Source: Candidatus Bathyarchaeota archaeon BA2
GTDB lineage: Archaea > Thermoproteota > Bathyarchaeia > Bathyarchaeales > Bathyarchaeaceae
Reading direction: 5' to 3'
Assembly: GCA_001399795.1 (NCBI GenBank)
Contig: LIHK01000056.1
Location: 5,773-69,772, forward strand
Length of the DNA: 64,000 nucleotides
Made by a program: the position numbers and the translations under genes. This document shows positions 8,195 to 58,209 of this stretch, one piece after another; positions within the stretch are counted from its first letter, which is position 1; each line of letters starts with the position of its first letter. Below the pieces are notes generated by a model that was not told the DNA's origin, did not search any database, and saw only the letters and a list, made by a program, of their open reading frames with translations.

Positions 8195-8350
8195 GCATAT
8201 TCCTCCATTACCAACCGTCATGTTTTAAATGATATTGAATAAAAGATTTGCCCTTCATTTCGACGATACTGTCAAGTTATCTTTTATAGGAGCTTTGAGA
8301 AGCCGCTTTTGGGAGGTGATCCTCATCAAATGGCTCCTCAAAGCCCTTAA

Positions 8351-8975
8351 GATAGCAGTTTGTTCAGGATTACCAGGTTTTCGTTGCGGTTGAAGGTTAG
8401 GGCAATCCTGCTCTACATGGCTGGCTTGAGCTATAGGGACATAACCCATGTGTTGAGGGTTGTGCCATGCAGCCATGAGGCTGTTAGGCTCTGGGTTAAG
8501 AAGCTGGAGCAAGTAATCGTCATTGTTGAGGCTAAGCATAGGCGGATGGTGGCCGTCGACGAGACAAGGTTAAGGCTGATGGAGAGTGGTGCTACGTGTG
8601 GGTTGCCATAGATGTCGATACGCGTGAGCTGCTGGCTGTATGGTTTCTTGGCAGAGGAACATCCTCCATGCAGAGGCCTTCCTGAGGAGGGTGCTGGAGA
8701 CGTGCACGAACAAGCCAGTCATCCTCGTTGATAAGGGTTCCTAGTATCCCGAGGCGCTCCAAGCCCTTGGGCTGGAATGGATGCATAAAACCTTCGGCGA
8801 GAGAAACCGCGTTGAGCGCTGGTTCAGGACCACGAAAGCAAGGACTAGGCGATTCTTCAACAACTTCCCAGTGAGAAAAAGGCCCATCTTCAAGATCAAA
8901 CTCTTCGCCTTGTGGTACAACTTTATAAGGCCACACCAAACCATGAAAAGACCGCCAGCAACACCAATAACTTGA
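8351..8975 (+). mobile_element. Decayed IS6-family-like (archaeal DDE) transposase gene
   Basis: Pieces lie in three frames: VRAILLYMAGLSYRDITHVL...AVDET, then GEWCYVWVAIDVDTRELLAV, then NILHAEAFLRRVLETCTNKPVILVDKGS*YPEALQALGLEWMHKTFGERNRVERWFRTTKARTRRFFNNF. There are at least two frameshifts and one in-frame TAG where Trp is expected. Confidence 0.75.
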
Positions 8976-9214
8976 CAGTATCCATTTCGACTAGTGAAAA
9001 AGGCTAAACATAAGTGAAAAACAGACCTGTAGAAGTGATATGTTGAAGAATGAATGTGATGTATTAATAAACATTGAATATTCATGAATTTCAAATCAAC
9101 ATAATCAGGGAAATTATAGTTGGAAAGAATGTTAATTGAAAGGAGTGATAGTGTTTCCAAAACACTTTTACAGTGGCTTCCGCTGTATTTCCTTAGCTCT
9201 GGGGCATGTAGACT

Positions 9215-12094
9215 TTGTCAGATCTTCCCAAGAACGCCTTCGATATGCTCGTTAAACCGATTCGTAGACTGGTTGAGCAGAAAGGCTTTGAAGCACCAAC
9301 CGAGCCCCAGGAGAAAACCATACCAAAAATCCTTGAGGGAAAGAATGTTCTCCTTATATCGCCTACCGCCACTGGGAAAACTGAGGCGGCTGTTCTCCCG
9401 GTTCTCAGCATGCTCATTCAAACGCTTGAAAGACCGCGTGGAATCAAAATTCTCTATGTGACGCCTCTTAGGGCTTTGAACCGAGACTTACTTGAGCGTC
9501 TCGAATGGTGGTGCAACAACCTAGACGTTAAGCTGGCGGTTAGGCATGGCGACACCGACACTGAGGAGCGGACTAGACAGGCTCAAAGCCCTCCAGACAT
9601 GTTGATCACCACGCCGGAAACCTTGCAGGCCATTCTGCCCGGTAGGCTCATGCGTCAGCACCTTCAGCAGGTAAGATGGGTGATCGTCGACGAAGTTCAT
9701 GAAATGGCGGACAGCAAGCGGGGAAGCCAGTTGTCCTTGGCTCTTGAAAGGCTCAGATGGGTCACGGGCAGAGAATTTCAACTCATCGGCTTGTCGGCAA
9801 CTATTGGAAGTCCGGAGAGGGTTGCTCAGTTTCTCGTCGGTAACGGGCGTGAAGTCGAGATCGTGAAGGTGCCCGTCGCGCGGCTCATGAGGTTAAAGAT
9901 TCTTTTTCCGCAACCGGAATCAGGTGACTACGAGTTAGCTTCAACCTTGTTTACCCATCCTGAGGTCGCCGCCCGCCTTCGCATAATTCGCCGGTTCATT
10001 GAAGAGCACAAATCTGTTCTTCTTTTCACAAACACGCGAGCCATATCAGAGGTTTTGGCCAGCCGATTCAAAGTTTGGGACGTGGACTTCCCTGTTTCCA
10101 TCCATCACGGCTCCCTGGCTAAGCCTTCTAGAATCGCGGCTGAACGGGGACTGAAGAACGGCGATTTGAAGGGGCTTGTTGCCACATCTTCGTTGGAGTT
10201 GGGCATAGACGTTGGACGGATTGACATGGTGATTCAGTATATGAGTCCGAGGCAGGTTACACGTCTCATTCAACGTGTGGGTCGGAGTGGTCACAGAGTT
10301 GGACGCATCGCAGAGGGGCTCATCATCACTATGGATTCTGATGATACGCTGGAGGCCATGTCTATCGGTCGCATGGCTGGCGAAGAGGATTTGGAGCCTG
10401 TGGATGTACCATATAAGCCGTACGATGCCTTGGCTCATCAGATCATTGGCCTCTTGATGAAGAAGAAGCGTTGGTATTTCTACGAGATTTACGACCTCTT
10501 TAGGAAGGCCTATCCATACGCTGACCTTACAGTGGAAGACGTTCAGAAAGTTTTGGATTACATGCACCATCGGTTTCCTAGGTTGGCGTGGGTTTCCTTT
10601 GAGGATATGCTTGCCATTAAGCCGCGTCAAACCAAGGCTATGTACGAGTATTATTTCGAGAATCTTTCCATGATTCCCGACGAAAAGAAATTCTTGGTTG
10701 TAGAAGAAAGTAAAGATTCTGCTGTGGGTGTTCTAGACGAGGCTTTTGTTGCCGAGTACGGTAAGCCTGGCGTGAAATTCATTATTCGTGGTAGCCCTTG
10801 GAAAATTTTGAACGTTTATGGTGACCAAATTTACGTGAAGCAGGTTAACGATCCAACTGGGGCCATTCCGAGCTGGGTTGGAGAAGAGATTCCCGTTCCC
10901 TTCGATGTGTCTCAGGAGGTTGGTTGGATCAGAGGTTTTGTTGAGGAACAGGTAAAGAATGGAAGGGAGCCTTTTGAAGTTGCTAGTCAGTTGGCCGAGA
11001 AGTATCCTGCTGACAGAGATACGGTTATGCGGGCGATTCATGAGACGGTTGAGCAAGTCAGGAAAGGTTATCCTGTTCCTACGGGTAAGCGGATACTGAT
11101 CGAGGATTGGGAGGACTTCGTCATTATTCACGCCCATTTCGGGTCCCTCACGAATCGGGCTTTGGCTCAGTTAATTGGTCACGTTTTGTCTGAGCAGACC
11201 GGATACAGCGTTATGGTTCAACACGATCCGTATCGCATTTTCGTTTATACGATGAGTGCCGCCAATGCTGATCGTATTATGGGATTGTTTGATGAGATGA
11301 AGCGGATGGATGACTTGGACATTCGTGACATGCTTACCAAGGCGACCGTGAAGACCGGCATTTTCAAGAGGCGGATGGTTCACGTTGCCCGCAGGTTTGG
11401 AGCCCTAAAAAAGTGGGTTGACCTGAGCAGAATTAGTCTTCAGAAGTTGATGAAGAGTTTTGAGGATACAGCCATCTACGATGAGGCTTTGAAGGAGACT
11501 TTCACCAAGGACCTAGATTTGGAGCACATGACCTGCGTGCTGAACGATGTTAAGAAGGGCGAAATTGAAGTCACTAAACTTGAAACTGAAGGCGTTGCGA
11601 CTCCAGTTGCGCGTGTTGGAATAGAAAGGGTTAGCATGAAAACTGACCTCATTCCACCTGAGAGGATGAAGCTTATTCTGGTGGAGTCGACTAAGGCGCG
11701 CCTCCTCAACGAGGTTCGCACCTTTGTTTGCACCGATTGCTGGGAATATCTGGAAATGATTCGGATTAAAGATTTACCTGAGATGCCAGCTTGTCCTAGA
11801 TGTGGGTCCTCAAGCTTGGGCGTGCTTGGGATGGAGGAAGATGCTATTCGGTCTTTGGTTGACAAGAGGGGTGAGAAGCTAACCACAAGCGAGGAGAAAA
11901 TGAAGAAGGGAGCTTTAAAAACGGCTAGGTTGATGTCTGGGTACGGCAAGCCAGCTGCTGTGGCCCTTTCTGGAAGAAAGCTTAGGGTTTCTGACGTGGA
12001 GGAAATTCTTAGAGAGGAGAAGACGCTTTCAGACAGGTTTTTTGAGTTGGTGATAGAGGCTGAAAGAAACGCCCTAAAAAGAAGATTCTGGTAG
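9215..12094 (+). CDS. lhr: Lhr-type large ATP-dependent helicase
   Basis: 959 aa. Walker A SPTATGKT, DEVH box, SAT, a helicase C motif QRVGRSGH, and a long C-terminal Lhr-like extension with a CxxC...CPRC zinc ribbon. TTG start at 9215; ATG alternative at 9245. Confidence 0.9.
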   Translation: MSDLPKNAFDMLVKPIRRLVEQKGFEAPTEPQEKTIPKILEGKNVLLISPTATGKTEAAVLPVLSMLIQTLERPRGIKILYVTPLRALNRDLLERLEWWCNNLDVKLAVRHGDTDTEERTRQAQSPPDMLITTPETLQAILPGRLMRQHLQQVRWVIVDEVHEMADSKRGSQLSLALERLRWVTGREFQLIGLSATIGSPERVAQFLVGNGREVEIVKVPVARLMRLKILFPQPESGDYELASTLFTHPEVAARLRIIRRFIEEHKSVLLFTNTRAISEVLASRFKVWDVDFPVSIHHGSLAKPSRIAAERGLKNGDLKGLVATSSLELGIDVGRIDMVIQYMSPRQVTRLIQRVGRSGHRVGRIAEGLIITMDSDDTLEAMSIGRMAGEEDLEPVDVPYKPYDALAHQIIGLLMKKKRWYFYEIYDLFRKAYPYADLTVEDVQKVLDYMHHRFPRLAWVSFEDMLAIKPRQTKAMYEYYFENLSMIPDEKKFLVVEESKDSAVGVLDEAFVAEYGKPGVKFIIRGSPWKILNVYGDQIYVKQVNDPTGAIPSWVGEEIPVPFDVSQEVGWIRGFVEEQVKNGREPFEVASQLAEKYPADRDTVMRAIHETVEQVRKGYPVPTGKRILIEDWEDFVIIHAHFGSLTNRALAQLIGHVLSEQTGYSVMVQHDPYRIFVYTMSAANADRIMGLFDEMKRMDDLDIRDMLTKATVKTGIFKRRMVHVARRFGALKKWVDLSRISLQKLMKSFEDTAIYDEALKETFTKDLDLEHMTCVLNDVKKGEIEVTKLETEGVATPVARVGIERVSMKTDLIPPERMKLILVESTKARLLNEVRTFVCTDCWEYLEMIRIKDLPEMPACPRCGSSSLGVLGMEEDAIRSLVDKRGEKLTTSEEKMKKGALKTARLMSGYGKPAAVALSGRKLRVSDVEEILREEKTLSDRFFELVIEAERNALKRRFW
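12044..12093 (+). repeat. Direct repeat copy 1 (lhr 3' end)
   Basis: 48 of 50 nt identical to 12763-12812. Encodes ELVIEAERNALKRRFW. Confidence 0.95.
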
Positions 12095-12206
12095 GTGTCT
12101 ATTTCTAGAACCTAATTTTTGCCGAGTTAAAATTAGGCTTCAGGGAAAATTTAATGAACGTAAGTGTAAGCAATTGCGATTGATTGCGGAAGATGGAGTG
12201 GCTTAG

Positions 12207-12527
12207 ATGAAAACTTTCATGGAAGAAATCATGAGGGCTTATAGGAAGAAAGTGCTTTTTACGCGTCATGCGTTGAATCAGATGAACTTGTCTGAGAGAA
12301 TGATTTCGAGGCTGGAGGTTTATGAGGCATTGGAGAGTGATGAGATTGTGGAAGATTATCCAGATGATCCTCGGGGGCACAGTTGTTTGCTTATGGGCAA
12401 AACTCGTGATGGAAGGGTTATTCATGTGGTTTGTGCACCCAAGGAGGATTATTTGGCGATAATAACGATTTATTCGCCAACTTTATTAGAGTGGGAACCA
12501 GACTTTAAAACGCGTAGAAGAGAGTGA
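12207..12527 (+). CDS. DUF4258-family toxin-like protein
   Basis: 106 aa. The F/TRHALNQM...EDYPDDPRG...LL...VVCA pattern is typical of DUF4258. A 4-nt overlap with the downstream zinc-finger gene also fits a toxin-antitoxin pair. Confidence 0.7.
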   Translation: MKTFMEEIMRAYRKKVLFTRHALNQMNLSERMISRLEVYEALESDEIVEDYPDDPRGHSCLLMGKTRDGRVIHVVCAPKEDYLAIITIYSPTLLEWEPDFKTRRRE

Positions 12528-12760
12528 GGCTCATGGAATGTTATTATTGTAAGGGCGCTATGGTTAGGGGAAAAACAACTTATACGATGAATGGGCGGGG
12601 GTATCATCTTCTTATCGATGAAGTTCCGGCTTGGATATGTCAGCAGTGTGGCGAGGTTTATTTTGAAGGAGAGGAAGTCGACATAATCCAAGACTTGATT
12701 AAGACGATTGATTCAAAACTCGCCAAAGCTCAATTGGCTAAACCAAAACCTCCAACGTAG
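12524..12760 (+). CDS. YgiT/MqsA-type zinc-finger antitoxin-like protein
   Basis: CYYCKG...CQQCGEVYF zinc-finger pattern. It overlaps the upstream toxin-like gene. Confidence 0.7.
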   Translation: MRLMECYYCKGAMVRGKTTYTMNGRGYHLLIDEVPAWICQQCGEVYFEGEEVDIIQDLIKTIDSKLAKAQLAKPKPPT

Positions 12761-12762
12761 AT

Positions 12763-12812
12763 GAGCTGGTCATAGAGGCTGAAAGAAACGCCCTAAAAAG
12801 AAGATTCTGGTA
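12763..12812 (+). repeat. Direct repeat copy 2 (displaced lhr 3' end remnant)
   Basis: Same 16 codons as the lhr C-terminus plus a TAA stop. It starts 2 nt after the antitoxin stop codon. Confidence 0.95.
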
Positions 12813-13036
12813 AGTTTACGCTGAAAAGGCAACTTTAGGGCTCGGATTTTCCTCACATGTGCTTGTAGAACGATTTATGATCGGAAATGTGTTGGGAATG
12901 TTGAAAACATTGTTGAAAAATTATGGAGGGGCCCTAGATAGAGAAAGAGATAGTTATTTAGAATTCATAAAAGTATAAAAGGAAGAGAAAGTGACTTAGT
13001 AGTCCCCTACTGTTAGACCCTCTGGAGAAGAACAAT

Positions 13037-20493: not shown

Positions 20494-20580
20494 CGCTGAG
20501 GTTTTGTCAGGTTGACAAGATAACTCTTTCTAAGCCCCTCATCACCATTTTTAGTGCAATTGCGTTTTTGGAAAAAATAC

Positions 20581-20617
20581 TGTTTTCAACATTCTTCTGT
20601 TATTAGGATCCAAATAG
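20581..20617 (+). repeat. 37-bp perfect repeat, copy 1
   Basis: TGTTTTCAACATTCTTCTGTTATTAGGATCCAAATAG is identical at 41622-41658. Weaker similarity extends about 25 nt upstream. Confidence 0.9.
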
Positions 20618-27678: not shown

Positions 27679-28059
27679 TTAGCTTGGTCTCTTCAGGTAT
27701 TCAGACACGCTTTTGAGAAAGCGTTCAGCAGCCTCAACAATCCATTCTGCATCTTCTGAGCCAAGAACAGGCCTTAAGGCGTAGTCAGCTGTTTCCCTCA
27801 AACTTTTTGCATCTGAAAATATTATGCCAAGCTCTCTGGGCAGTTTCTTCTCCTTGACGAAATGTAATCCAAACTCTCGGAGGGTTCCTTCATGGGTTTT
27901 TGGAAACGAGTTTTCAGAGGCTAGAGCAGCTTTAGACGCATGGAATATGCAATAGTAGGCTCTAGAAATGGCGTCTTCATATTCCTCAAGGCCCAGTAAT
28001 TTCTTCGCCGCCCCCAGTTTTCTTTGAGCTTTCCTTAAGAGGTCATCAATTTCTGACAA
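27679..28059 (-). CDS. HEPN domain protein (toxin-like partner of the MNT protein)
   Basis: 126 aa. AISRAYYCIFHA and the Rx4-6H-like RETADY region. It overlaps the upstream nucleotidyltransferase gene by 14 nt. Confidence 0.75.
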   Translation of the reverse strand: MSEIDDLLRKAQRKLGAAKKLLGLEEYEDAISRAYYCIFHASKAALASENSFPKTHEGTLREFGLHFVKEKKLPRELGIIFSDAKSLRETADYALRPVLGSEDAEWIVEAAERFLKSVSEYLKRPS

Positions 28060-28543
28060 GACTCAAAACATCTCCATATAACTGAATGCCTTCTTCCTTG
28101 ATTTCCCTAGCAAAATTCAGCTCGTCCTTTATCCACTCAATAAATTCTTCTCGGTTCATGATGATTAGTGTTATGGGCGTGGCTGAAACCAGAGATATGG
28201 GATAGATTATTTTGTGTGATTTCCTTCTGACTCTAGAAGCATCTTCGTGTTCAATCAGAATGAGCAGGTCTATGTCACTTTCAAGTGTGGCATCGCCGCG
28301 AGCTACAGACCCGAACAGCACAACATCAGTGATGACGCTGGCTAGGTTAGATTTCAAAATCTCGGAAGCTATTTCAGCGATAACACGAATAAACCTTTGC
28401 AGGGATATGTAATGTTCGGCAACAAGCCTTCGAACCGCCTCTCTAATGGCTTCGCTTCTGCTTACATAGAAACCCTCTGAGACAAGTCTATCCAGTTCTC
28501 CGACAAGTTTATTGTCAAGTTTCGTTGGGATAGCTAGGTCCAT
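28046..28543 (-). CDS. Minimal nucleotidyltransferase (MNT) with an N-terminal ribbon-helix-helix
   Basis: RHH-like SRSEAIREAVRRLV. Nucleotidyltransferase motif LFGSVARGDATLESDIDLLIL. Confidence 0.75.
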   Translation of the reverse strand: MDLAIPTKLDNKLVGELDRLVSEGFYVSRSEAIREAVRRLVAEHYISLQRFIRVIAEIASEILKSNLASVITDVVLFGSVARGDATLESDIDLLILIEHEDASRVRRKSHKIIYPISLVSATPITLIIMNREEFIEWIKDELNFAREIKEEGIQLYGDVLSLVRN

Positions 28544-35346: not shown

Positions 35347-35472
35347 CTGTAGATAGACCCCTCTAGTTTTCTTTATATACTGTCAACATTGAAACTGGGC
35401 GATGTGGTGCAGATGCTTCTTTGTGTGTCGAGGCTATGTAGCCCCCTCTGTTTATAGTTCCAACATTGAAAC
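35347..35472 (+). repeat. Two tandem units of a dispersed intergenic repeat family
   Basis: CTGTAGATAGACCCCTCTAGTTTTCTTTATATACTGTCAACATTGAAAC is followed about 77 nt later by CTATGTAGCCCCCTCTGTTTATAGTTCCAACATTGAAAC. Related copies lie at 48468-48610, 41449-41509 (minus strand) and, more weakly, at 2230-2330 and 43870-43925. Confidence 0.8.
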
Positions 35473-38088: not shown

Positions 38089-39306
38089 GTGAAAGCAACT
38101 ATCGTAGAATGCGTGATGGGTGTTCTCAGCTTCGGAGAAGCCAACGAACTTCTCGACAAAGTTTTCTTCCCAAAGAATCCGCTGGAAATAGCGGAAAGGC
38201 TTGGAAAAATAGAAGCCGGAAAGGTTATTGAAGAAATAGCTACTTTGATTGAAAAACTGCAAGAAAAGGGTTACACAACCTTTGTTTTTGAAAGTTTGGA
38301 GATGGCTCGAAACGCCCGCGAAAAGCTAAACATTGAAGTAGATGTAGAGAGGCCCTCGGAGGCTGGTGAGCTGCTTCGTGGAAACCTTGAAAATTTTGCT
38401 GTTGACTTGGGGTTCGTAAAGCGGGCGGATCAGCTTCATGAATGGATTCACAATGTTTCTATGGAACTCGCTAAGGTAAGGGTGATGAGGGCTGTTGAAA
38501 AGCGAGATTTGTTGGTGGTTCAGGCTATTCAAACCATTGACGACTTGGACAAGACGCTGAATCTTTTCATGAGCAGGGTCCGCGAGTGGTATGGACTCCA
38601 CTTTCCAGAACTAGATCGTCTGATAGACAAACACGAAACATACGCGCGCCTTATCCTTAACTTTGGAAAAAGGGACAATTTTACTGTAGAAAACCTAGAG
38701 AAAGAGGGGTTACCGAAAGCTAAAACCGAACAGATAGCCGAAGCCGCCAAAGCTTCGATGGGAGCTGAACTCAGCGAAGAAGACATAAACCAAATGCAAG
38801 CCATGTGCAGAAACACGCTCGGGCTCTACGATGCGCGGCAGTCGCTGGAAAAGTATGTTGACACGATGATGAACGAGGTTGCGCCCAACACCCGTGCCTT
38901 GGTTGGTTCCCTTCTTGGAGCTAGACTCATAGCGCTTGCAGGTGGATTAAACAATCTAGCTAAGTTGCCAGCGAGCACACTTCAGGTTTTGGGTGCTGAA
39001 AAAGCCCTGTTTAGGTCGCTCAGGACAGGGGCTCGCCCCCCCAAGCATGGAATAATTTTTCAGCATTCCCTTATTCACGAAGCGAAACGGTGGCAGAGGG
39101 GGAAGGTTGCTCGGGCTTTGGCTGGAAAGTTGGCTATAGCCGCTCGAATCGACGCCTTCAGCGGCAAGTACGTGGGAGACAAGTTGACGGCTGGTCTCGA
39201 GAAAAGAATTGAGGAAGTCAAAGAAAAGTATGGGGAGCCTCCTCCTCCCAAGAAGCTTCCAGTCCAGAAGCGTCCTAGGAGAATGAAACGTGGCCGTAGA
39301 CGTTAA
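38089..39306 (+). CDS. nop5: C/D box RNP protein Nop5 (Nop56/58)
   Basis: NOSIC/Nop domain (REWYGLHFPEL...AEKALFR...PKHGIIFQH) and a K/R-rich tail. Directly upstream of fibrillarin and overlapping it. Confidence 0.9.
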   Translation: MKATIVECVMGVLSFGEANELLDKVFFPKNPLEIAERLGKIEAGKVIEEIATLIEKLQEKGYTTFVFESLEMARNAREKLNIEVDVERPSEAGELLRGNLENFAVDLGFVKRADQLHEWIHNVSMELAKVRVMRAVEKRDLLVVQAIQTIDDLDKTLNLFMSRVREWYGLHFPELDRLIDKHETYARLILNFGKRDNFTVENLEKEGLPKAKTEQIAEAAKASMGAELSEEDINQMQAMCRNTLGLYDARQSLEKYVDTMMNEVAPNTRALVGSLLGARLIALAGGLNNLAKLPASTLQVLGAEKALFRSLRTGARPPKHGIIFQHSLIHEAKRWQRGKVARALAGKLAIAARIDAFSGKYVGDKLTAGLEKRIEEVKEKYGEPPPPKKLPVQKRPRRMKRGRRR

Positions 39307-39988
39307 GCCGCACCCACGGTTTCCAGGAGTTTACTGGGCTTCTTTAGAGGATGGTTCCAGAAGACTAGCCACAGCAAACCTTATTCCAGGGAAGAGTGTT
39401 TACGGTGAGCGACTGGTCAGGTTTAGGGGTGAAGAATACAGGCTTTGGGACCCTTATAGGAGCAAGTTTGCTGCTTCCATTTTGAAGAGTCTGGAAGCTG
39501 TTCCTATCCAACCTAACCATAAAGTTTTGTACTTGGGAGCCGCTTCTGGAACAACGGCGAGTCACGTTTCTGACATTGTCGGGGAGAAGGGTCATGTCTA
39601 TTGCGTAGAATTTGCTGCTCGCGTCATCAGAGAGTTGGTTAACAACGTTTGTGCCTTTCGCTCTAACATGTCGCCTGTATTGGCGGATGCACGTCTGCCG
39701 GAGCGTTACTCGACGCTGGTGGGGAAGGTGGACGACGTTTACTGTGATATAGCTCAGCCTGAGCAGGCTAGGGTTTTGGCGGACAATGCTGATTTGTTTC
39801 TTGTGGATGGTGGTTGGGTTATGTTGGCGGTTAAGGCTCAGAGCATAGATGTTACGAGGGAGCCCTCTGAAATATATGAACAAGAGATAAACATTATGAA
39901 GGTCCGTGGGTTTCGTGTCAGCGAGGTTGTTCACCTGGAACCTTATGATAAGGCGCACGCCATGATTGTGGCAAAGAAAGAAACTTAA
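39290..39988 (+). CDS. flpA: Fibrillarin (rRNA/tRNA 2'-O-methyltransferase)
   Basis: YRLWDPYRSKFAA, VLYLGAASGTTASHVSDIV, and DIAQPEQA. Confidence 0.95.
   Translation: MAVDVKPHPRFPGVYWASLEDGSRRLATANLIPGKSVYGERLVRFRGEEYRLWDPYRSKFAASILKSLEAVPIQPNHKVLYLGAASGTTASHVSDIVGEKGHVYCVEFAARVIRELVNNVCAFRSNMSPVLADARLPERYSTLVGKVDDVYCDIAQPEQARVLADNADLFLVDGGWVMLAVKAQSIDVTREPSEIYEQEINIMKVRGFRVSEVVHLEPYDKAHAMIVAKKET
39806..39983 (+). repeat. Direct repeat copy 1 (fibrillarin 3' end, 178 bp)
   Basis: Identical to 40599-40777 apart from one extra G in copy 2. Checked base by base. Confidence 0.95.
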
Positions 39989-40511: not shown

Positions 40512-40598
40512 AACTATTCAGTGCGTAACGTGATTGTAGAGCTTAGAAAATATAGGATAAGAAGACTCTAAACAGTAGCCTGTTTAATCAATTCTTTT

Positions 40599-40777
40599 AG
40601 ATGGTGGTTGGGTTATGTTGGCGGTTAAGGCTCAGAGCATAGATGTTACGAGGGAGCCCTCTGAAATATATGAACAAGAGATAAACATTATGAAGGTCCG
40701 TGGGTTTCGTGTCAGCGAGGTTGTTCACCTGGAACCTTATGATAAGGCGCACGCCATGATTGTGGCAAAGAAAGAAA
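40599..40777 (+). repeat. Direct repeat copy 2 (displaced fibrillarin 3' end, 179 bp)
   Basis: Same as 39806-39983 with GG changed to GGG at about 40619-40621. The end diverges (..KKENI* versus ..KKET*). Confidence 0.95.
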
Positions 40778-41509: not shown

Positions 41510-41621
41510 CGCGCGCGGCGACAGGTCTTTTGTCTCTCGAAGGAAAAATTTGTTGTGAGACAAAGGTGAGGTACCCCTCCATCCATTTTCACAGCAGTTA
41601 CGGTTTTCAGAAAAATATTGT

Positions 41622-41658
41622 TGTTTTCAACATTCTTCTGTTATTAGGATCCAAATAG
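41622..41658 (+). repeat. 37-bp perfect repeat, copy 2
   Basis: Identical to 20581-20617. Confidence 0.9.
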
Positions 41659-57620: not shown

Positions 57621-57848
57621 GTGGTGATTATTGTGAGCGATAAAAGAGCCAGGACGACGCTCATACTGGAGGAGACCGTGATTAAGAAGCTAAAACAAAA
57701 GTCACGAGGGAACATCTCAGAGCTAGCCAATAGAATACTTAAGGAAGCCCTCTTTGGTAAAGGCGAAAGCATGTTTGGCGAATTAAAGGGATTGGTGTCA
57801 ACGAAGGACGTCGTTGAGGAAGAAACTCATGAGGAGTTATATCGTTGA
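57621..57848 (+). CDS. vapB: VapB-like antitoxin
   Basis: 75 aa. An N-terminal beta-strand/helix pattern TTLILEETVIKKLK. It overlaps the PIN gene. Confidence 0.6.
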   Translation: MVIIVSDKRARTTLILEETVIKKLKQKSRGNISELANRILKEALFGKGESMFGELKGLVSTKDVVEEETHEELYR

Positions 57849-58209
57849 CACATACGCTTGGGTATCATACTTTGAGGGAAAGAAAGAATTCAAAGAAGCC
57901 ATAGAAGAAAACGAGCTTTACACCCCTTCAATAGTCCTAGCGGAGTTCAGCAGGATTCTAGTTAGAAAACGCATTCCGCAAGATAAGCGCTCTAAGACTC
58001 TTGGCTTCGTAAGGAAGCGCAGTCTCATCTTAAGCTTAGATGAGACCAACGCTGTTAAAGCTGGGGAAATAGCAGAGAAGGAGGGGCTACATCTAATCGA
58101 TGGCATCATATACTCCTACGTAGATGAAGACGTTTGGCTCCTCACAGGCGATAAGCACTTTATGAACAAACCTTTCGTTAACCTCATTGAAGGAAGCAAT
58201 GCCACATAG
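57829..58209 (+). CDS. vapC: PIN-domain toxin VapC
   Basis: YIVDTYAW (first acidic residue), ...EFSR..., and a C-terminal TGDKHF. Start taken at ATG 57829 (MRSYIVD). Confidence 0.75.
   Translation: MRSYIVDTYAWVSYFEGKKEFKEAIEENELYTPSIVLAEFSRILVRKRIPQDKRSKTLGFVRKRSLILSLDETNAVKAGEIAEKEGLHLIDGIIYSYVDEDVWLLTGDKHFMNKPFVNLIEGSNAT

Follow-up and report, generated by a model that had tools for sequence, protein, structure and literature searches.

A toxin-antitoxin cassette lies between two copies of the lhr 3' end

The window analysed here is a stretch of 64,000 nt from Candidatus Bathyarchaeota archaeon BA2 (contig LIHK01000056.1), in which lhr, the gene for a Lhr-type large helicase, is followed by a small predicted toxin-antitoxin (TA) cassette and then by a second copy of its own 3' end (Table 1). 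A repeat search of the window returned the two lhr ends, copy 1 (E1) and copy 2 (E2), as a direct repeat of 54 nt with 51 identical positions (94%). When the last 50 nt of lhr were used as a query with up to three mismatches allowed, the only matches were at 12044-12093 (no mismatches) and 12763-12812 (two mismatches), and shuffled sequences gave matches in 0 of 100 shuffles. The two internal differences (TTG/CTG for Leu and GTG/GTC for Val) are both synonymous in the lhr frame, and the stop codons differ, TAG in copy 1 and TAA in copy 2. Copy 2 starts 2-3 nt past the antitoxin stop TAG (12758-12760), and the 669-nt insert between the copies contains only two co-directional ORFs, those of the toxin and the antitoxin. 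A first-pass annotation had noted a duplicate of this kind, 48 of 50 nt identical with synonymous differences and distinct stops, and had reported nothing but a TA pair inside it; the repeat search and the profile matches of the two ORFs (PF14076 and TIGR03831) confirm both observations.

The predicted toxin matches PF14076 (DUF4258) with 85 bits against a cut-off of 25, over profile positions 1-70 of 71, and has 358 homologues. Its 78-aa partner carries a CxxC...CxxC zinc ribbon and scores 51 bits with TIGR03831 (cut-off 20.2); it reaches 27.5 bits with Pfam MqsA_antitoxin, below the cut-off of 30 and over profile positions 1-65 of 131 only, and 30.8 against 61.8 with TIGR03830. The profile search found no helix-turn-helix (HTH) domain in it, so that the full MqsA architecture of zinc ribbon plus C-terminal HTH is lacking, and the predicted antitoxin is of the YgiT-finger type, equivalent to the N-terminal half of MqsA. 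The reading frames of the two genes share 4 nt (12524-12527). Scanning metagenomes with the window toxin yielded a set of 80 DUF4258 loci with toxins of 46-89% identity, and toxin and antitoxin occur together in 78 of them. We predict that the DUF4258/YgiT pair is a type II TA cassette, in which the first protein would be toxic and the second would neutralise it. DUF4258 has been listed as a member of the RelE/ParE superfamily without experimental study, and DUF4258-MqsA fusions exist (PMC11980606). Among viral contigs we found no relative of the toxin.

Upstream of the toxin gene, the first part of the leader (12097-12136) is common only to the cassettes associated with lhr ends, namely those of the window and of three metagenomic loci introduced below (L083, L084 and L085). 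From about position 12137 on, the leader is conserved in cassettes at other sites as well, and the alignment contains an invariant, TATA-like AAAATTTAA there; this element and the operator-like palindrome are a putative promoter and operator. The leader also has a perfect 9-bp inverted repeat at 12111-12119 and 12129-12137 (CCTAATTTT, 9 nt, AAAATTAGG), which is partly conserved in L083.

Table 1. Features of the two bracketed cassettes in the window
Feature	Position	Strand	Basis and remarks
lhr (Lhr-type large helicase; target gene)	9215..12094	+	ORF of 959 aa; Pfam DEAD, Helicase_C, WH_Lhr, DEAD_assoc
E1, repeat copy 1	12043..12096	+	final 16 lhr codons, stop TAG and 2 nt; forms the intact lhr 3' end
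Cassette leader	12097..12206	+	sequence; alignment with other cassettes
TATA-like element	12146-12155		in leader; predicted promoter role, from sequence
Operator-like palindrome	12170-12187		in leader; predicted operator role, from sequence
GGAG	12196-12199		in leader
Toxin gene, DUF4258 (RelE/ParE-superfamily BECR fold; predicted toxin)	12207..12527	+	PF14076, E 4.3e-24
Antitoxin gene, YgiT-type zinc ribbon (predicted antitoxin)	12524..12760	+	TIGR03831, E 1.3e-13
E2, repeat copy 2	12762..12815	+	remnant lhr end with stop TAA, then chromosomal flank; same junction in L083
Flank from E2 to orf111	12816..13036	+	carries the conserved promoter-like motif AATTCATAAAAGTATAAAAGGAAGA at 12962-12986
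Fibrillarin gene	39290..39988	+	PF01269, E 3.6e-96
Fibrillarin copy 1	39798-39983	+	last 186 nt of the gene
Antitoxin-like ORF, 68 aa	40034-40240	+
ParE/RelE toxin, 87 aa	40248-40511	+	PF05016, E 1.2e-8
Fibrillarin copy 2	40592..40777	+	99% identical to copy 1

Relatives carry an uninterrupted lhr 3' end

We compared the window with 80 orthologous lhr loci of Bathyarchaeia, all from metagenome-assembled genomes, with one genome per species and 71-89% amino-acid identity. None of the 80 has a toxin or antitoxin homologue within 6 kb of lhr, and none has a second lhr end downstream of the gene; the usual order is lhr, about 100 bp, orf111 and a methyltransferase gene. The promoter-like motif, which precedes orf111 in the closest relatives and lies about 55 nt past the lhr stop in relatives, is found in the window downstream of copy 2. 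These observations support the cassette as a lineage-specific insertion, with the duplicate as part of it, at a site that is uninterrupted and unduplicated in the relatives. The first-pass annotation had anticipated such an empty site, and had named relatives keeping the duplicate without the pair as the finding that would speak against an insertion; all 80 loci lack the pair and the duplicate alike. In an attempt to polarise the flanks, the 46 nt that follow each stop codon were compared with the sequences downstream of lhr in about 80 relatives; the alignment scores were no better than those of shuffles.

Leaving aside a promoter-like repeat of 32 nt in L081 and repeats confined to one region of L006, we found no comparable structure in about 1 Mb of lhr loci. 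The L081 region right after lhr (8862-11900) encodes a ribbon-helix-helix (RHH) protein, a 299-aa ORF and several small basic ORFs, and contains the 32-nt sequence at 9073-9104 and again at 9626-9657. The region is a possible integrated plasmid or virus-like element, and no second lhr end was found within 5.4 kb. We also considered, as a possible insertion hot spot, the lhr loci that have no downstream orf111 or methyltransferase gene (L009-L020, L070 and L073). These turned out to be ordinary gene-content differences, their contents being a 534-aa unannotated ORF, ABC-transporter-like ORFs (recognised by eye) and, in L009, an unbracketed RelE-like pair (also by eye).

On the other side of lhr, the window holds degenerate IS6-family transposase fragments at 8229-9160, between a zinc-ribbon gene and lhr (8360-8611 matches NF033587, E 5e-10; 8781-8975 is a weak match). 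This remnant (8360-8975) is upstream of lhr and outside the bracketed structure. Close relatives such as L003 have about 280 nt between the zinc-ribbon gene and lhr, and the IS6 stretch therefore constitutes a second lineage-specific insertion beside the gene.

The architecture recurs at other genes and with other TA families

A second instance lies in the same window at the fibrillarin gene, whose 3' end is repeated on the far side of an antitoxin-like ORF and a ParE/RelE toxin gene (Table 1). The gene ends in ...KKET and the remnant in ...KKENI, each followed by a stop codon, and in assembly GCA_002509245.1 copy 2 was called as a 56-aa Fibrillarin fragment. The ParE toxin has 278 close homologues, mostly in Bathyarchaeia. 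At lhr, and at fibrillarin as the second case, a direct duplication brackets the insert and one copy of the target gene is intact, the arrangement expected of an insertion-duplication. In all, the 64-kb window contains four TA-type pairs; around the other two, a HEPN plus RHH-nucleotidyltransferase (MNT) pair at 27679-28543 and a VapB-like plus PIN (VapBC) pair at 57621-58209, no bracketing repeats were found. A separate repeat of about 65-75 nt, at 20555-20617 and 41590-41658 (21 kb apart), has a 46-nt core of 91% identity that contains GTTTTCAACATTCTTCTGTTATTAGGATCCAAATAG. Related TTTCAACATT motifs were seen at positions 35370, 45583, 48494 and 52514, and the repeat may represent either a regulatory motif or some small repeat element.

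To look for the architecture outside the window, we scored direct repeats between the 350 nt on each side of the cassettes at 55 non-redundant DUF4258 loci. Thirteen exceeded the 99th percentile of non-cognate pairs, ten of them by far, compared with one in the reverse-complement control, and bracketing repeats within 3 kb were present at 18 of 52 DUF4258 loci. Across cassettes the repeats range from 32 to about 450 nt. The repeated segment is the 3' end of lhr in L083, of a FadB-like gene in L120 (where the copies show a 42-nt in-frame length difference), of the IMP dehydrogenase gene (IMPDH, guaB) in L150, of folD in L128, of a membrane-protein ORF in L117 (EamA-like by eye, not profiled) and of a convergent gene in L123; in L090 it is the 5' end of a divergent gene. 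Related cassettes thus sit behind other genes with duplicated ends of those genes, a search the first-pass annotation had proposed.

In L128, three copies of the folD 3' end separate the TA pair and a hemolysin-III (HlyIII) gene. The order in 8948-12307 is an intact folD, a DUF4258/YgiT pair, a 68-nt folD-end copy, the hemolysin-III gene and a 193-nt folD-end copy that is 80% identical and keeps an open frame. This array suggests serial insertions at one gene end, with cargo other than TA pairs included.

Other TA families show the same arrangement. VapBC pairs are bracketed in L143 and L110, and the VapBC pair of L117 (1354-2243) has on either side a 44-nt copy of the start of an ORF whose N-terminal sequence looks GyrB-like by eye. 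The downstream copy marks the true start of that ORF, which indicates that the architecture occurs at gene 5' ends too. Homologues of the window ParE cassette in L172-L177 are bracketed by 277-449-nt copies of the 3' end of a GT2 glycosyltransferase gene, and next to these, copies of the 3' end of a GDP-mannose-dehydratase-like gene enclose a PIN/MazE pair, so that arrays result. In these arrays (for example L173 383-3783 and L174 647-3959), the GT2 and dehydratase-like fragments are 72-83% identical and still called as ORFs. In seven cases the right edge of the repeat lies no more than 55 nt ahead of the stop codon and no more than 7 nt beyond it, as expected if homology between donor and recipient ends with the conserved coding sequence.

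Two further candidates were rejected. The aspartic-protease genes that flank a ParE pair in L166-L171 are paralogues with 32% protein identity and do not form a bracket. A search with a 71-aa FolD C-terminal fragment returned more than 100 matches, all of them short FolD C-terminal ORFs (63-125 aa), which might have been taken for scars of insertion; the two that we checked on long contigs (L179 and L180) are frameshift-split or degraded folD genes in long-read assemblies. These ORFs caution against calling gene fragments insertion scars without their context.

All sequences considered here are metagenome assemblies, and one could suppose that the structure is an assembly artefact, either a chimeric contig of strain variants or an excised circle and an empty site read as an integrated form. 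We retrieved three assemblies of the window population, and both lhr junctions are present in each: the window arrangement is unchanged in GCA_002509245.1 contig DAEP01000104.1 (100% identity) and identical in a MEGAHIT k127 contig of run SRR2132206 (99.96% identity). Since the lhr repeat (51 nt) is shorter than the k-mer of 127, single k-mers span each junction, and the lhr structure is not an assembly artefact; the first-pass concern that reads might fail to place both junctions in one molecule is met by this agreement. At fibrillarin the 186-nt repeat exceeds the k-mer, and the independent MEGAHIT assembly breaks there, leaving a 703-bp contig with the cassette only (L165), so that for this locus the assemblies do not separate the integrated form from a circle plus an empty site. 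Over the whole set, the architecture reappears in dozens of samples and with several assemblers, some of the contigs being 1-2 Mb long, and copies that are 75-90% identical cannot be strain bubbles. We consider an artefact very improbable.

The two lhr-end copies evolve in concert

An orthologous insertion in another metagenome (L083, about 84% DNA identity to the window) occupies the same lhr site with the same junctions; its copy 1 has the stop TAG, and after its copy 2 come TAA and then GTTTACGCTG. The repeats of the window and L083 differ at 5-6 of 51 positions, and four of these substitutions (GCT/GCG, GAA/GAG, AGA/AGG and AGA/ACA, the last changing R to T) are common to both copies within each genome; the copies within one genome differ at only 1-3 positions, all at the repeat edges. 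The shared substitutions point to homogenisation of the lhr-end copies by gene conversion or by cycles of excision and reinsertion, which would confine differences to the repeat edges and leave the near-identity of the copies silent on their origin. The lhr-end copies of the window and L083 evidently evolve in concert. The first-pass annotation had taken the synonymous-only divergence of the two lhr ends as a sign that they evolved in separate lineages before being joined; for the lhr locus itself the L083 comparison removes this argument, and it holds instead for the cassette families described in the next section.

The cassette and its gene have different histories in the two genomes. Synonymous divergence (dS) between the window and L083 is 0.71 for lhr (last 505 codons), 0.19 for the toxin gene and 0.31 for the antitoxin gene (Fisher p = 1.3e-6), and the proportion of synonymous differences (pS) in the adjoining 1 kb is 0.45-0.67. 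The lower dS of the cassette indicates that the block was exchanged between lineages after lhr had diverged. The shared block reaches about 125 nt past copy 2, and that stretch is about 90% identical despite the lhr dS.

A sister cassette (L084 7441-8351 and L085 9790-10700; toxin 88% identical) lies 11 nt past an Hsp20-like ORF on a 1.1-Mb contig, between two degenerate copies of the lhr end whose starts are about 22 nt further 5' than in the window. In L085 these copies, which adjoin no functional gene, contain stops and indels. The pair of gene ends seems to have travelled with the cassette.

The redundant copies diverge like coding sequence

If the redundant copy were made de novo and then decayed, the ratio of non-synonymous to synonymous proportions (pN/pS) between copies should be at least about 0.5, the mean of a constrained and a neutral lineage, and stops and indels should accumulate; import of a working orthologous gene end predicts a low pN/pS and an intact frame. 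For nine pairs pooled, we found pS 0.257 and pN 0.062, a pN/pS of about 0.24. Among the more diverged copies, the GT2 copy (142 codons) has pS 0.44 and pN 0.092, GT2 fragment B (71 codons) pS 0.59 and pN 0.17, and the GDP-mannose-dehydratase-like copy (72 codons) pS 0.74 and pN 0.16. Counts pooled by hand gave about 156 synonymous and 123 non-synonymous differences, a non-synonymous fraction of 0.44; decay would give about 0.62, a gap of roughly six standard deviations. The compared remnants have open frames, the stop is kept in the GT2, L120 and L150 remnants, and in several remnants frames and stops are intact with synonymous sites near saturation. From the low pN/pS and the open frames we conclude that the redundant copies in the cassette families compared here are, in most cases, gene ends imported from an orthologue.

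These data bear on two other accounts of the duplicates. A long target-site duplication could be made de novo at insertion, for example through widely staggered breaks, template switching or break-induced replication, with copy 2 decaying afterwards. Such a process would fit the near-identity of the window copies (94% over 54 nt and 99% over 186 nt), the varying repeat lengths, and the position of cassettes at gene boundaries, which is expected if only harmless insertions survive. It would also predict decay, and the pooled pN/pS is about half the minimum that decay allows; frames are open at pS 0.44-0.74, with one stop in place, whereas the dead L085 copies show what decay looks like, and the 42-nt length difference in L120 is in frame. 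Gene conversion, as seen in the comparison with L083, explains why the window copies are nearly identical. We regard de novo duplication as unlikely.

The target genes might alternatively have been ancient tandem paralogues, between which a cassette landed before one copy was truncated. This too predicts a low pN/pS between copies. Against it, none of the 80 relatives has a second lhr or lhr end; the same history would have to be repeated for lhr, fibrillarin, folD, guaB, gyrB and others, with only the TA-adjacent terminal fragment surviving each time, and the window copies are 94-99% identical. Tandem paralogy is highly unlikely in our judgement.

The cassettes lack common termini and a recombinase

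Toxins 73-89% identical to that of the window belong to cassettes at six or more different sites, and the repeat is a different one at each. When cassettes from different sites are compared, homology begins about 70 nt upstream of the toxin start and breaks off 5-45 nt short of the antitoxin stop, and we found no common termini or terminal inverted repeats among them. There is no integrase or transposase among the Pfam-annotated neighbours at 18 loci or the profiled window ORFs, and the lhr insert encodes the two TA proteins only. A tRNA scan and an Rfam scan of the window returned no match, indicating that no RNA gene or tRNA-type attachment (att) site is involved.

Measured against known classes of element, the cassettes thus show neither a recombinase nor a shared att sequence and target, as an integrase/att element would; neither defined termini nor a transposase nor a short duplication of fixed length, as a transposon or insertion sequence (IS) would, their duplications running from 32 to about 450 nt; and, as regards integrons, no sequence common to cassette ends at different sites and no intI nearby, attC folding not having been modelled explicitly. 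Membership of the cassette in the integrase/att, transposon or integron kinds is excluded.

A related possibility is that the cassette is the remnant or satellite of a site-specific integrative element, its integrase lost by internal deletion or acting in trans, with an attP that mimics the lhr 3' end having recombined with attB. A 41-nt identical core with differing arms, a restored gene end, identical junctions in two lineages (the window and L083), and tandem arrays at folD and GT2 that resemble serial integration at one att site are all consistent with such an element. Set against them are the absence of an integrase from the insert, from the Pfam-annotated neighbours at 18 loci and from the profiled window ORFs, the closely similar toxins at many sites with a different repeat at each, the wide range of repeat lengths, the use of 5' ends or convergent-gene ends in some cases, the lack of conserved cassette termini, and a window without a tRNA gene. 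A site-specific origin of this sort is, in our estimate, quite unlikely. The first-pass annotation had left open whether the insertion was of Campbell type or site-specific and had likened it to tRNA-targeting integrative elements. The Campbell topology is supported, as a recombinase-free, homology-driven event; the site-specific form and the likeness to tRNA-type elements are not, given the many targets, the variable repeats and the unconserved ends.

A proposed homology-anchored route for cassette insertion

We propose that the DUF4258/YgiT cassette probably entered the lhr 3' end by homology-anchored recombination, without a recombinase of its own, through either a Campbell-type single crossover or homology-facilitated illegitimate recombination (HFIR). 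A fragment from another lineage would have brought that lineage's lhr end followed by the cassette. If the fragment circularised, a single crossover with the resident lhr end would insert it by Campbell-type insertion-duplication; alternatively, the fragment could have joined through one homologous and one illegitimate end, as in HFIR. The outcome would be an intact lhr ending in copy 1, the cassette, a redundant copy 2 and the old flank. The Campbell-type event is the simplest process that yields this topology, and the data do not separate it from HFIR.

Direct repeats a few hundred bases apart invite deletion, and cargo that kills cells losing it would therefore be retained preferentially. 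Addiction, that is, the death of cells that lose the pair, may in this way protect the structure from deletion between the direct copies. Cargo other than TA pairs is bracketed in at least one case, the hemolysin III gene of L128.

Several observations weigh against homology-anchored insertion as the origin of the lhr structure. The lhr copies are too alike to show a foreign origin, and gene conversion has to be invoked as an extra process. The exchange between the window and L083 looks like an ordinary double-crossover replacement and would be uninformative on how the structure first formed. At L084 and L085, lhr was not found nearby, and a simple single crossover does not explain that locus. 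The expected donor-type arrangement, lhr followed by the cassette with a single lhr end, occurs in none of the 80 species-level relatives. The pN/pS test is sensitive to transition bias, and the short pairs are much less decisive on their own. For the FolD remnant of L128, no database FolD is closer than the resident gene (79% vs 80%), which speaks neither for nor against a foreign origin.

More tentatively, small TA cassettes, and occasionally other cargo, could form a class of recombinase-free mobile units that use the end of a conserved housekeeping gene as a portable homology arm, a generalisation we hold to be possible and rather less than an even bet. In the cycle that this would entail, a circle would be excised between the gene-end copies, reach another cell and insert anew at that gene, in whatever lineage was sufficiently similar for homologous recombination, and addiction would hold the unit in place. 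Were this correct, the remnants of gene ends would amount to fossils of the donor lineage that can be dated, and the near-identical window brackets at lhr and fibrillarin would mark active copies that can still be excised. An excised lhr unit would have the circle or tandem junction ...CCTCCAACGTAGAT + E + TAGGTGTCTATTTCTAG, where E is the repeat, and would leave the empty-site junction of the lhr body ...GACAGGTTTTTT + E + TAAGTTTACGCTG.

Comparison with known systems

Chromosomal TA pairs are patchily distributed and clearly transferred horizontally, mostly without a transposase or integrase, and their mode of movement is a long-standing question. At a sizeable share of loci, from at least three TA families in archaea and bacteria, the scars described here offer a testable route, through homologous recombination of the host acting on a piece of a conserved neighbouring gene that was transferred along with the cassette, and addiction would explain why a deletion-prone structure persists. 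Short gene-fragment ORFs beside TA pairs, such as those of 56 aa (fibrillarin), 95 aa (FolD) and 141 aa (GT2), would then be insertion scars rather than genes. Each remnant would be a sample of a housekeeping gene of the donor, from which the donor and the date of transfer could be inferred, and where brackets are nearly identical, like the two in the window genome, excision circles and polymorphism for presence or absence are to be expected. The mechanism as such is familiar from bench work and from polymorphic-toxin loci; our searches of the open-access literature turned up no account of TA cassettes between duplicated gene ends, or of such a widespread natural route for TA pairs with housekeeping-gene ends, which is not proof of absence.

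Elements that insert at gene ends provide one parallel. Phage 21 and e14, which integrate in icd, and tRNA-targeting islands carry a replacement gene end and a tyrosine integrase and use one fixed att site. As in our cassettes, the 3' end of the target is duplicated, the gene stays intact and the displaced copy of phage 21/e14-type elements has mostly synonymous differences; here, by contrast, no integrase and no conserved ends were found, and the targets are many. Translocatable units of IS26/IS6 offer another, in that a circle of one repeat copy plus cargo inserts beside a resident copy, leaving cargo between direct repeats from which it can be re-excised by recombination. Their repeat is an IS that encodes the transposase, whereas ours is a fragment of a host gene, and the bracketed structure does not include the IS6 remnant that lies upstream of lhr. 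In Vibrio superintegrons, small integron cassettes with TA pairs, promoter-bearing or promoterless, stabilise a deletion-prone array. Our cassettes differ from these in that no intI was found nearby, no attC-like element is shared across sites, and the flanking repeats are direct copies of host genes.

A further parallel lies in the arrays produced by C-terminal displacement at the type VI secretion system (T6SS) effector-immunity loci of V. cholerae and at Rhs and contact-dependent inhibition (CDI) orphan modules, and for the arrays of displaced 3' ends at T6SS and Rhs loci HFIR has been invoked (PMC5361080). There, too, a conserved upstream segment anchors the incoming module, and serial events leave displaced 3' fragments and orphan genes, much as in the folD and GT2 arrays. 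The displaced ends in those polymorphic-toxin loci are different toxin domains; in our cassettes it is a near-copy of one and the same housekeeping gene end that is displaced, with an intracellular TA pair as cargo. In E. coli, a re-circularised molecule carrying a lacZ end integrated by single crossover far more often than by HFIR, and the resulting duplications of that end measured 109-950 bp (PMC3240628). Compared with such Campbell insertion-duplication at the bench, the events proposed here would be natural and recurrent in uncultured archaea and bacteria, with homology down to 32-51 nt, TA pairs as cargo and a presumed circle. As when a circular, non-replicating DNA with a gene fragment inserts by single crossover, in suicide-vector integration or in E. 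coli conjugation (PMC3240628), a direct duplication of exactly the homologous segment flanks the insert, one gene copy is intact, the length of the duplication varies (109-950 bp in that experiment, 32 to about 450 nt here), and a dedicated recombinase is not needed.

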